Source: a bacterium HR35
GTDB lineage: Bacteria > Patescibacteriota > Minisyncoccia > UBA6257 > HR35
DNA: 64,000 bases
Direction: 5' to 3'
Assembly: GCA_002898235.1 (NCBI GenBank)
Contig: BEIL01000004.1
Span: 499-64,498, forward strand
Both the position numbers and the translations under genes were made by a program. Positions 1 through 4,488 of this stretch are shown here, one piece after another. The notes beneath the pieces are model-generated. The model did no database searches. It was not told where the DNA came from and was given only the letters and a program-made list of their open reading frames with translations. Numbering within the stretch: the first letter of the stretch is position 1; every line of letters starts with the position of its first letter.

Positions 1-227
1 TTTTTAACAAGATGTGGTTTTAAGCAATAAATATAAAGTTTATAATTTTTACTTCTTCTTAGAAATCCATTAACTTTAAGTTCAGATAACAAATTTCTAA
101 AAGCATCATTGTCTAATTCAAATTCAAATACAGAATATTGTACTCTCTCGCCATATTTTTCTAAAATTCTTACTAATCTATTTCTAATTTTATTTTCGGA
201 TATATCATAAGATATTATATATCTCAT
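1..227 (-). CDS. cas2: CRISPR-associated endoribonuclease Cas2, N-terminal part only; the gene runs off the window start
   Basis: The reverse strand from the ATG at 225-227 translates MRYIISYDISENKIRNRLVRILEKYGERVQYSVFEFELDNDAFRNLL..., matching the Cas2 N-terminal signature (YDIS...R..v.k.L..yG.RVQySVFEc). There is a 4-nt ATGA start/stop overlap with the cas1 stop. It is absent from the ORF track because the window edge truncates it. Confidence 0.8.
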   Translation of the reverse strand, partial: MRYIISYDISENKIRNRLVRILEKYGERVQYSVFEFELDNDAFRNLLSELKVNGFLRRSKNYKLYIYCLKPHLVK

Positions 228-1204
228 ATTGAACCTCTCATGTTTAATGGGACATAATTTTCTAATTCTCCAATAAGAGTTTTTGCAAGTATTCTTATTT
301 GATATAAAGATAATTCGTTTAATGTTAGTTTCTCTTTAAATTGTTTTATATAGAATTGTTTTTTATACCACCAGTCTAACCATTCCTTAATAAAAAATGC
401 TCTCGGCTTTTTCTTTAAAAAATAAACACCGTAATAATTTTCAAAATCTTCTTTTTTTATCCTTCTATTATTAATAAGATTAAGTACTAATTTATCCACT
501 GCAATTGGTCTGAATTCTTCCATCATATCAAGAGCTAATGACGGTCTTCTGTAGTTTATTTCATGATAAAAACCCATAAAGGGATCTAGGCCAACTAATA
601 AAATATTAGTTATTATTTTTGATACTAATAAAACATAGCCATAACTTAATAAAGAATTTATTTCATCTCTAGGAGGATTTTTCGTTCTATGAATAAAATT
701 AAAATCTTTGTTTTTTATTATTGAAGCAAACTTTAACCAATAAGATTGGGCAATTGTTCCCTCAATGCCTAAAATACTATTTTTTGAATATAACCCATTT
801 AATTCAACTTCTGGTAAATTTGCTTTTTTATCAATAGATTTCAAAACCCAAAGTTGGCTATTTCTTTTACCCATAACTATAGCCTTGGAGAAATTTAAAA
901 CAAAATTTAAATCTAATCTTTTTTTATATTGTGATTCTCTTAAAAAAATATTTTTACTGTTACCACTAAAATATGATCCATAATATTTGCCGTTTTTATT
1001 TATAAAGTAAATAGGTATTTTTAATTTAGAACACAGCTTCAAAAAACTAGGCTTTATATTATTATCTATATGCAAAATAATATCCTGAATTAAATTTGAT
1101 GGTAAAGTTTTTATTAAATCTTTTTTATTATAAATTCTAAATTGAAAATTATTTGCCGCAACTGTTTTATCTTTTTCCAAAATAACTAAAGTTTTTTTAT
1201 CCAT
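224..1204 (-). CDS. cas1: CRISPR-associated integrase Cas1
   Basis: The 326-aa product contains [29 protein letters not shown], the conserved Cas1 active-site block (GLDP..G.lH....gR.SL..DlME.FR). It lies between cas4 and cas2 on the same strand. Confidence 0.9.
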   Translation of the reverse strand: [326 protein letters not shown]

Positions 1205-1223
1205 TTTTAATATTATCTTTAAG

Positions 1224-1890: not shown

Positions 1891-1967
1891 ACCGGTTTTT
1901 GCCGGTGACCGGTTTTTTGCCGGTGACTGACTGAGGTTGCTAAAACCAAACTAACCCAACCTCAGTC
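1891..1967. repeat. Intergenic structured element: two direct copies of accggttttt(t)gccggtg followed by a perfect 11-bp-stem hairpin (gactgaggttg / caacctcagtc at 1929-1939 and 1957-1967)
   Basis: Read directly from the sequence. It is unusually GC-rich for this genome and lies between the Cas12-like gene and cas4, which makes it a candidate small RNA (for example a tracrRNA-like transcript) or a terminator cluster. Confidence 0.4.
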
Positions 1968-2031
1968 AATCATATTAATTATAGCACAAAAAATATAAAA
2001 AATCAATGCTTGCCTTTTTAATAAAAATTAT

Positions 2032-4488
2032 CTAAAAATCGTACTTTCTTGCTATATTTATTGCTCCAACTACATCCGCCTCTTCTTCATATCCACATTT
2101 TAAACATTTAAATTTATCTCTACTAATTCTGGGAGTAACTGTCTTAAAATATTCTAAGGCTTCTTTTAAATTATTTTGCTCAATTAGTTCTTTAATTTCG
2201 TCTAATTTAATATTTTTAGGATATTTGTTTAAATAACAAACCCAATGTTCTGGTAAATTTATTTGTAAACTACCAATTAAAAATTTTTTATTATCCAAAT
2301 CTATAGATTTTTCTTTTATCAAATTTTCAAATTGTTTTAAAGTTAAACCATCTAATATCTTCCTTTTAATATCTGCATTGAAGTTAAACTCACAATTTGG
2401 ACAAATAATTGATGTATCTTTTGGATCTACAAATTTTAATAAATATTTTTTAGGTAAATTAGCATATTGTAAGGCTAACTCAAGAAACTTTTCAATTTTT
2501 CTATAAACCCGCTTAGCAATAATTTTTTCTTCTTTGCCAAATCCTTTTCTTAAATTTTCCATAACAATTATTGCTGGATAATTACTTAAAATTTTTAAAA
2601 TTTTAGAAATGGATTGATGAAGAATAGTTTCTTGCGTTCTTAAAATCCTATTGCCTATTTTTTTCTTCTTTCTTTTTTTATGTAATTCTTCAAGTTTTTC
2701 AGCAAATTCTTTACCTAAAATGCCTTTTTCATTTCCAACCACCTTTTTGTCTTTATCTAAAACCGCATAAGCAATTGGATATTTCTCTCCCCTATCAATC
2801 CCTAAAACATAACTAATTTTATTTTTTATACTATCTTCAATAATATTGGTTATATCTCCGTTGTATTCAAAGGTAATATCAACATAATATTCAAATTTAT
2901 CACCGGGTTTGTTTTTAACTCTTTTCACTCTGGCGTTAGCAGGAAAAAATTTATTTTTAGATTCGCTTAAAAATCCCCATTCTTTATGAAACAATATTCT
3001 TCTTAAATAAGATTTACCGTGATACAACCAAAAATAACAAGAATAAGGATCTTTATCTTTCTCTAAATGACCTGAGATTAATTTGTATTCTTTGGGTTTT
3101 CTTTGTGATTTTTTTCTAGAACCGCCGGTTAATACAATGAAGTAAAAATCTTTATTATGGTCATTTTTTAAACAAAATGCTTTGGTTGAAATACCTAAAG
3201 TTATTCCTAATTGATGTTTTTCTTTTTGATTATCTTTATCGATTTTTAAAATTAAAGCCCCAGCTTTTAAAGGTTTATTATCTTTCCAACCGAAACCAGA
3301 GATTATAAAAGAGTCTTTAACTGGTTTTCCTTTCAAAAATTCTGCTTTAATTTTGGTTATTTCATTATTTATCTCATTTAAAGTTTCTCCTCTTTTTTCT
3401 TCCGGTAGACTAGAAACATATAAAATCTCGGTTAAGAAAAATAGGGTATTAAAGAATTTATTTCTACCCTGCCAATCAAATGGTTTTTTAAATAAATGCT
3501 TTTTTTGTTTTTCTAATTTATTAAATAAAGCTTTAATTATATTTTCTATGGATTCACTGCTTCTTTTTGTAATATACCAATATAAAAATCTATCTTTCAA
3601 CGCACTTGACTTCTTTTTTCTATATTTTAATTTTTTCAAAAGCTGTTCTCCTTTTTCTTGTAAATATTTAGATATTACGTCCTCCTGCTGTTTAATATCA
3701 ATTCTTTCTTTTTTGAGATTATATCTATCCTCAAAGCTATTAAGTAAGTATTTAAGTCTGTCTTTAAATTCTTCTTTAACTTTTTTAATATTAAATTCTA
3801 AATTATTTCTATTTTTAAAATCATCAAGATTTTGGTATTTTTCTATCAAAGGAAACGAGGGTAGTCTTTTTAAATTAGAGATAGGCCTTTTCTTTTTCAG
3901 ATTTCTTTCTTTATTAATTTCAGCGATAAGAGTATTAAATTCTTCAGTTAAATTTTTTGCTGTTTGCCAGGTCTCATAATTTTGAATACTTAATTTTTTA
4001 TATTCTTCTATTAAACCTTGAATTAAAGTTTTTTCTGAATCGTCTAAATCTTTTCTTTCTAAAATTTTTCCAACTAATCTTTTATTATCATAGAAAGCTT
4101 TTTGCGTATTAGTTACAAAACTATTAAGTACAGATGATATTTCTGTTCTAATTCCTTCTTCAACTTTTGAAGTTAAAATCTTATAGGTATTTTTAAATTT
4201 TTCAAATCTTTTTTTATTTTTATAAATCCAATCATAACCTAATTTTTTGTTAATAAATAAATTTAATTCGCCTGCCTTAAATTCCTCGTATAAATCTTTT
4301 AAATGTAAATATTTTATTTCAGAAATTTCTTCAAACCACTTATCTAAAATTTCTCTATCTTCTCCTTTGGGAAATATTCTAAAAGAAACGGTTCTAGATA
4401 AATTTTTAGGCAACAAGATGGTTTCATAAGCACTTCTTAAATCTTTTATTACTTGAAGAAATTTTATTTTATCTTTATTCTGGGTCAT
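2032..4488 (-). CDS. cas12: Compact type V CRISPR effector of the Cas12 family (818 aa); subtype unassigned
   Basis: RuvC-I is VLGIDRGEKYPIAYAVLD (D565, codon 2794-2796). It is followed by an Arg/Lys-rich bridge-helix-like segment. RuvC-II is AIIVMENLRKGFG (E644). A split zinc ribbon is formed by CPNC (C696/C699) and CLKC (C795/C798). RuvC-III is EADVVGAINIARKYDF (D805). An N-terminal SRTVSFRIFPKGED block resembles the Cas12a WED-I motif (SKTLRFELiPqGKT). The gene sits immediately upstream of cas4-cas1-cas2 on the same strand. Confidence 0.8.
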   Translation of the reverse strand: MTQNKDKIKFLQVIKDLRSAYETILLPKNLSRTVSFRIFPKGEDREILDKWFEEISEIKYLHLKDLYEEFKAGELNLFINKKLGYDWIYKNKKRFEKFKNTYKILTSKVEEGIRTEISSVLNSFVTNTQKAFYDNKRLVGKILERKDLDDSEKTLIQGLIEEYKKLSIQNYETWQTAKNLTEEFNTLIAEINKERNLKKKRPISNLKRLPSFPLIEKYQNLDDFKNRNNLEFNIKKVKEEFKDRLKYLLNSFEDRYNLKKERIDIKQQEDVISKYLQEKGEQLLKKLKYRKKKSSALKDRFLYWYITKRSSESIENIIKALFNKLEKQKKHLFKKPFDWQGRNKFFNTLFFLTEILYVSSLPEEKRGETLNEINNEITKIKAEFLKGKPVKDSFIISGFGWKDNKPLKAGALILKIDKDNQKEKHQLGITLGISTKAFCLKNDHNKDFYFIVLTGGSRKKSQRKPKEYKLISGHLEKDKDPYSCYFWLYHGKSYLRRILFHKEWGFLSESKNKFFPANARVKRVKNKPGDKFEYYVDITFEYNGDITNIIEDSIKNKISYVLGIDRGEKYPIAYAVLDKDKKVVGNEKGILGKEFAEKLEELHKKRKKKKIGNRILRTQETILHQSISKILKILSNYPAIIVMENLRKGFGKEEKIIAKRVYRKIEKFLELALQYANLPKKYLLKFVDPKDTSIICPNCEFNFNADIKRKILDGLTLKQFENLIKEKSIDLDNKKFLIGSLQINLPEHWVCYLNKYPKNIKLDEIKELIEQNNLKEALEYFKTVTPRISRDKFKCLKCGYEEEADVVGAINIARKYDF

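Follow-up and report, generated by a model that had tools for sequence, protein, structure and literature searches.

The first 4488 nucleotides of a 64-kb stretch of DNA from the uncultured bacterium HR35 (hereafter the window, which denotes the whole stretch) carry a CRISPR-Cas locus. Four genes lie on the minus strand in one direction between positions 1 and 4488 and were identified from the list of open reading frames (ORFs) as an effector gene, cas4, cas1 and cas2 (Table 1). Matches to Pfam, NCBIfam and PADLOC models confirm the type V module, in the order effector-cas4-cas1-cas2, that a preliminary description made from the sequence alone had proposed. Read along the minus strand, the layout is cas12e, a trans-activating CRISPR RNA (tracrRNA), cas4, cas1 and cas2, followed outside the window by a leader and, probably, the CRISPR array. 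This region is almost certainly the greater part of a chromosomal type V-E (Cas12e/CasX) CRISPR-Cas locus, whose effector is the published ortholog HrbCas12e.

Table 1. Features of the type V-E locus in window coordinates. L001 is a Logan contig that is described in the text.
Feature	Position	Strand	Basis
cas12e (casX) effector = HrbCas12e, GBD34782.1, 818 aa	2032..4488	-	NF045604, PADLOC CAS-V-E, 100% identity, Foldseek
tracrRNA promoter, sigma-70-like	1978..2006	-	promoter scan, consensus match only
tracrRNA, ~143 nt	~1829..1971	-	fold, conservation, ends inferred from promoter and terminator
anti-repeat of tracrRNA, 26 nt, GAGUAUAGAUUGUAAAAGGAAGGUUG	1857..1882	-	pairing with partial first repeat on L001
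intrinsic terminator of tracrRNA: GC-rich hairpin and T-run	1829-1856	-	
cas4, 196 aa from ATG 1814	1224..1814	-	TIGR00372, Pfam, PADLOC, gene call on L001
cas1, 326 aa	224..1204	-	Pfam Cas_Cas1, TIGR00287
cas2, 75 of its 93 codons; the window edge truncates the gene	1..227 (ATG 227)	-	Pfam CRISPR_Cas2, TIGR01573

The effector is matched from end to end by models of Cas12e. The NCBIfam equivalog for Cas12e/CasX (NF045604) aligns with effector residues 27–816 over profile positions 1–885 of 886 and scores 792 bits (cutoff 200; E = 8e-238), and the Cas12e model of the PADLOC-DB CAS-V-E set (PDLC01668, 2023) aligns over positions 1–776 of 776 with 1397.9 bits. Public profile libraries have included such Cas12e (V-E) models from 2023 at the latest. 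The preliminary description had recognized a RuvC/zinc-ribbon effector, and Pfam agrees, with matches to RuvC_1 (2e-13) and to the Cas12f1-like TNB zinc ribbon (1e-8). The RuvC triad is formed by D565 (GIDRGE), E644 (VMENL) and D805 (EADVVGA), which align with the sites of the D/E/D-to-A mutations in dPlmCasX and dVemCas12e. The zinc ribbon carries the cysteines C696, C699, C795 and C798 (CxxC...CxxC). Both the triad and the four cysteines are invariant among six relatives. As in other Cas12e proteins, a single split RuvC nuclease is interrupted by the zinc-ribbon domain, which corresponds to the target-strand-loading (TSL) domain.

Structural comparison places the effector in the same family. 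A phmmer search against all PDB sequences returned only Cas12e/CasX chains, with dVemCas12e (8xyc) as the best match (3e-16) and PlmCasX (7way), DpbCasX (6ny1) and dLesCas12e (8y2i) as the others. An AlphaFold2 model of the effector was built from six homologs (mean predicted local distance difference test, pLDDT, 78.9) and compared with the PDB using Foldseek. The top seven matches are all CasX/Cas12e structures (E = 1e-22 to 3e-16; best match 7way, E = 1.2e-22), and Cas12a ranks below them. Among the features by which Cas12e membership was assessed, full-length profile coverage, the RuvC/TSL arrangement, the CasX fold, the tracrRNA anti-repeat and the association with cas4-cas1-cas2 are present.

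The only bacterium HR35 entry, the NCBI protein GBD34782.1, has the same sequence as the effector (100% identity). Mining of NCBI with a Cas12e hidden Markov model has yielded six newly named orthologs, including 'bacterium HR35 Cas12e (HrbCas12e)' (Li et al., 2024, Nat Commun 15:10727, PMC11685505). On the basis of the organism name and the single matching protein, the protein in the window is HrbCas12e; protein and locus are the same, the tracrRNA lies in the same place and no difference between the two was detected. The new orthologs retain the CasX domain arrangement with the exception of an NTSB counterpart, and in the HrbCas12e locus the tracrRNA separates cas12e from the adaptation genes (Li et al., 2024). 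T-rich protospacer-adjacent motifs (PAMs) were reported for five of the six new orthologs, Plm2 being the exception, together with single-guide-RNA-guided plasmid interference in Escherichia coli for all eight systems (8/8), and a granted patent covering HrbCas12e is declared (Li et al., 2024). Effector and locus are therefore already known: they have been described, assayed for PAM and interference, and patented. To this, the present analysis adds the positions of the tracrRNA and of its promoter, anti-repeat and terminator within the window, supporting comparisons with five sister loci, and the correction of a database label.

The adaptation genes are assigned by family profiles, with scores well above what chance would give. 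Cas1 matches Pfam Cas_Cas1 (6e-72) and TIGR00287 (224 bits, cutoff 71.7), Cas2 matches Pfam CRISPR_Cas2 (2e-16) and TIGR01573 (46 bits), and Cas4 matches TIGR00372 (77 bits, cutoff 65), Pfam Cas_Cas4 (1e-11) and PADLOC Cas4 models (to 2e-35). A Logan contig, L001 (DRR101367), matches window positions 1–4928 with 0 mismatches and reaches 219 nt past position 1. The mechanically derived cas4 ORF starts at TTG 1859 and encodes 211 aa, whereas the gene call on L001 starts at ATG 1814. The latter is most likely the true start, because 1815–1859 overlaps the tracrRNA terminator.

Between cas12e and cas4 lies a gap of 217 nt that was overlooked in the preliminary description and encodes the tracrRNA. 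Its putative promoter, found by scanning, consists of TTGATT, a 17-nt spacer and a TG-extended TATAAT (10 of 12 consensus matches), and a TATAAT-type box is found at the equivalent place in the related loci L002–L005. The putative transcript, the ends of which were set from promoter and terminator, folds with -60.7 kcal/mol (z = -7.4 compared with shuffled sequences). It comprises, in order, a long 5´ stem-loop with a conserved GUUUUAG in the loop, one or more variable hairpins, an invariant GCAAAAAGA, the 26-nt anti-repeat and the terminator. The tracrRNA is conserved in six related loci; of the 21 base pairs in the RNAalifold consensus, 12 show compensatory changes. The same element follows cas12e in the related loci; it lies between cas12e and cas4 in L002–L005, and L006 ends before any cas4.

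When set against the incomplete first repeat on L001, the anti-repeat pairs at 25 of its 26 positions (one G-U). The repeat core has no other match in the window, and 0 are expected by chance. In five loci the anti-repeat matches the repeat of its own locus best or essentially so, with the near-identical repeats of HR35 and L003 cross-matching. This co-variation of anti-repeat and repeat across the five loci is good evidence that the predicted RNA functions as a tracrRNA. An Rfam search of the whole window found no family at gathering score; the tracrRNA is therefore not a curated Rfam family.

The array itself probably lies just outside the window. Within the 64 kb, Tandem Repeats Finder (TRF) detected no repeat-spacer array, and a k-mer spacing scan found no 16-mer that recurs at least three times at 40–110 nt spacing. 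Beyond the window edge, L001 contains the last 18 codons of cas2, a leader of 135 nt that includes a TGGTATAAT box and then the repeat start GTCCAACCTTCCTTTTACAACCTATGCTC, at which the contig ends. The first repeat starts ~190 nt before window position 1, and with it probably the HR35 array. The preliminary description had stated that no array was present in the 64 kb and had placed it just past position 1. The first statement stands, and the second is supported, because L001 ends in the first repeat and the arrays of L002 and L003 occupy the same place. The leader and repeat of L001 resemble those of L003, where 10 repeats of 37 nt (GTTCAACCCTCCTTTTACAATCCATGCTCACTAAAAC, then nine more repeats) lie directly downstream of cas2, and at least 8 repeats follow cas2 immediately in L002. 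Repeats of the Hrb clade end in CACUAAAAC. The full HR35 repeat is expected to be 37 nt long, to consist of GTCCAACCTTCCTTTTACAACCTATGCTC followed by approximately ACTAAAAC, and to begin ~135 nt after cas2.

Three independent Logan contigs, L001, L004 and L005, all stop within the first repeat, ~29–31 nt in. Assembly probably broke off at the repeat, which would hide arrays from contig-level searches. Degenerate repeat scans of genome and metagenome contigs gave no match, and a protein scan of genome contigs gave no relative.

The small size of the effector was examined by aligning HrbCas12e with family representatives of different lengths. Members of 961–1040 aa, including a DpbCasX/PlmCasX-like representative, contain a cysteine-containing insertion of ~100 aa in the N-terminal third (the NTSB domain) and a tail of ~40 aa past the last RuvC motif. 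HrbCas12e and the members of 816–888 aa have neither the insertion nor the C-terminal tail, and it is the absence of these two elements that makes the effector ~160 aa shorter than DpbCasX and PlmCasX. The NTSB domain of DpbCasX and PlmCasX, which could be taken as a mark of Cas12e, is thus missing from HrbCas12e. This domain does not define the family, since VemCas12e, LesCas12e and OpbCas12e also lack it (Li et al., 2024). When 1.84 billion cluster representatives were searched exhaustively with HMMER, ~12 full-length relatives (E < 1e-90) of 816–911 aa emerged, each standing for a 50%-identity cluster; 818 aa is therefore a typical length for this branch. A word-indexed search of 5.8 billion proteins returned only six close relatives, and a profile-seeded word search returned the same six. 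The closest relative locus is L003, whose effector is 66% identical. Relative P0005 (L002, 10001–12589), which belongs to a Patescibacteria group bacterium, bears the source label 'transposase'; this label is wrong, and the protein is a Cas12e.

Several observations weigh against the assignment of the effector and its locus to Cas12e. The TM-scores of the top seven Foldseek matches are moderate (TMq 0.46–0.56). Identity to solved Cas12e structures is only 14–18% in structural alignments, and the phmmer E-values extend from 3e-16 to 5.5e-06. The protein that is identical to the effector, GBD34782.1, is named 'CRISPR-associated endonuclease Cpf1' at NCBI. The HR35 array is known from the first 29 nt of one repeat only, and the L002 and L003 spacers had no match among 50,697 phage records (blastn), so that no PAM was obtained in silico. 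Three exact scans of IMG/VR with 20–22-nt spacer sequences from the same two arrays likewise found no protospacer. The moderate TM-scores are what would be expected when an apo model of a multi-domain protein is compared with ternary complexes. The low identity to solved Cas12e proteins marks the Hrb clade as a divergent branch.

The same low identity, together with a length 160 aa below that of DpbCasX and PlmCasX and the retrieval of only six close relatives by the word-indexed search, would suit the proposal of the preliminary description that the effector represents an undescribed compact subtype of type V, a new Cas12 family of less than 850 aa with a full adaptation module. This proposal is now very improbable. 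The Cas12e models match the protein from end to end with 792 and 1398 bits, the nearest fold is that of CasX, the tracrRNA is of the CasX type, and the protein has been published as a Cas12e ortholog. The preliminary description had itself named membership in a well-populated subtype of the same length as a finding that would speak against novelty, and this was found: the subtype is Cas12e, and its clusters of 816–911 aa number about 12. Compact Cas12 nucleases are useful, deliverable scaffolds for genome editing, and in this respect it was reasonable to flag the protein.

An assignment to Cas12a/Cpf1 (type V-A) has the NCBI name in its favor, as well as secondary matches from Cas12a models and structures and a gene order, effector-cas4-cas1-cas2-array, that also occurs in V-A loci. 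Nevertheless, it is barely tenable. The Cas12a profile matches are local, confined to residues ~530–675 in the RuvC region, and reach 34–51 bits compared with 1398 bits for Cas12e; the effector is 400–500 aa shorter, a tracrRNA with an anti-repeat is present, and Foldseek ranks every CasX structure above Cas12a. The NCBI label 'Cpf1' is wrong, and the protein is Cas12e. The V-A-like gene order noted in the preliminary description is present, but it is equally the order of the original V-E loci, and this locus needs a tracrRNA, which type V-A systems are not known to have. The gene order is consistent with the set of adaptation genes expected in V-E loci no less than in V-A loci (cf. Altae-Tran et al.).

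A TnpB nuclease of an IS200-IS605-type transposon that merely adjoins an adaptation module, as the Cas12f1-like TNB match, a weak TnpB-family match at the C-terminal zinc ribbon (18.5 bits) and the 'transposase' label of P0005 might suggest, is hardly credible, because the guided_TnpB match covers ~28 residues at 18.5 bits compared with a cutoff of 100 and because the synteny with the tracrRNA, cas4-cas1-cas2 and the array is conserved in related loci. Around positions 2032–4488 no credible terminal inverted repeats were found, only AT-rich chance matches with 70–87% complementarity. The preliminary description had named terminal inverted repeats as the mark by which the effector gene would be recognized as part of an insertion sequence (IS) element.

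Within Cas12e, it is possible, although doubtful, that the HrbCas12e-like proteins form a separate and little-studied V-E sub-branch, characterized by 816–862 aa, a relocated tracrRNA and repeats that end in CACUAAAAC. These proteins have no solved structure, and their named relative comes from Patescibacteria. If the sub-branch is real, its guide architecture could differ from that of CasX enough to provide a distinct, smaller editing scaffold. Its novelty would be one of detail (guide pseudoknot, structure and thermostability) and not of kind, because Cas12e has already been divided into four branches, none of which lacks a characterized member (Li et al., 2024).

A mechanism can be proposed for the type V-E system at this locus, in which the PAM and the interference in E. 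coli are taken from Li et al. (2024, PMC11685505) and the catalytic residues from the alignments presented here. Judging from what is known of these families, Cas4, Cas1 and Cas2 would add each new spacer at the leader-proximal repeat. Transcription would run in the direction of the cas genes for both the array and the tracrRNA, and promoter-like boxes are present. Close to its 3´ end the tracrRNA carries the 26-nt anti-repeat, which, according to the computed complementarity, would pair with two-thirds of each 37-nt repeat, counted from the 5´ end. The conserved 3´ end of the repeat reads CUAAAAC in L002 and L003 and probably pairs with the conserved GUUUUAG loop of the tracrRNA, which would create a pseudoknot or triplex. 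Such a pseudoknot/triplex is typical of CasX guides. Both complete repeats (L002 and L003) end identically and are hence uninformative on covariation between CUAAAAC and GUUUUAG. The dual guide would then load the 818-aa Cas12e, which would recognize a T-rich 5´ PAM and unwind the DNA. The single RuvC site (D565/E644/D805) would cut both strands with the help of the zinc-ribbon target-strand-loading domain.

The window is chromosomal and encodes valyl- and cysteinyl-tRNA synthetases (ValRS and CysRS), IF-2, GatA, a PilB-type ATPase, a copper ATPase and phosphoenolpyruvate (PEP) synthase; no tRNA genes were found in its 64 kb. The preliminary description had suggested a host of the candidate phyla radiation (CPR) type. 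This is plausible and consistent with a GC content of 24–32%, the housekeeping neighbors and the one relative labelled Patescibacteria. At NCBI, bacterium HR35 is listed under unclassified Bacteria.

Other features of the window were observed in passing. Directly upstream of cas12e, a 56-aa ORF (4772–4942, minus strand) matches only the C-terminal half of DUF488 (positions 70–121 of 121, E = 4e-9) and looks like a truncated gene remnant that adjoins the CRISPR-Cas locus. The PEP synthase ORF (23157–26846, minus strand) encodes 1229 aa, compared with a profile of ~790 aa, and contains an insertion of ~430 aa at residues ~425–850 that matches Intein_splicing and LAGLIDADG homing-endonuclease domains. 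The insertion is probably an intein within the mobile phospho-histidine domain. Two overlapping small ORFs of 66 and 84 aa (7990–8441, minus strand), the second of which appears RelE/ParE-like by eye (…GEYRLRIGDYRVLFDV…), may be a toxin-antitoxin pair.

Repetitive DNA occurs as well. Positions 6938–7385 contain a 129-bp tandem repeat (2.6 copies, 93% identity) that is GC-richer than its surroundings and includes sub-repeats with CGGAC/GTCCG; related GTCCGTGTAT motifs run on to 7385, and the ORFs on both strands of this region have no Pfam match. Similar short repeats of the ACGCAGAACA type lie at 16493–16901. A 650-aa ORF (32452–34404, plus strand) contains 60/120-bp (20/40-aa) tandem repeats at 33700–34302; it shows a weak Receptor L-domain-like match, belongs to no NCBIfam family and probably encodes a leucine-rich-repeat-like surface protein. 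The 129-bp repeat at 6938–7268 and the 60/120-bp repeat at 33700–34302 were considered as hidden CRISPR arrays and rejected, since neither has a repeat-spacer structure.

Compared with known systems, HrbCas12e shares with Cas12a/Cpf1 (V-A) the order of the cas genes, a T-rich 5´ PAM and a RuvC domain, whereas Cas12a is ~1200–1300 aa long and operates without a tracrRNA. The likeness to the founding Cas12e proteins DpbCasX and PlmCasX (PDB 6NY1-3, 7WAY-7WB1) extends to the family profile, the overall fold, the single RuvC with an inserted TSL domain, the dependence on a tracrRNA and the association with cas4-cas1-cas2. DpbCasX and PlmCasX are longer, at 986 and 978 aa compared with 818 aa. The repeats of the Dpb and Plm loci end in GCAUCAAAG, those of the Hrb clade in CACUAAAAC.

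The Plm, Dpb, Vem and Les loci share one cas gene arrangement, and in the Vem, Les, Ckb and Plm2 loci the tracrRNA is located between cas2 and the array (Li et al., 2024). In contrast, the tracrRNA of HrbCas12e occupies the gap between cas12e and cas4. VemCas12e and LesCas12e (PDB 8XYC, 8Y2I; 880 and 899 aa) resemble HrbCas12e in being compact and in lacking the NTSB domain. They differ in a length that is 60–80 aa greater, in the placement of the tracrRNA and in sequence, with ~16–18% identity by structural alignment, and their hosts belong to the Verrucomicrobia and Lentisphaerae, whereas HrbCas12e is encoded by a CPR-like genome.

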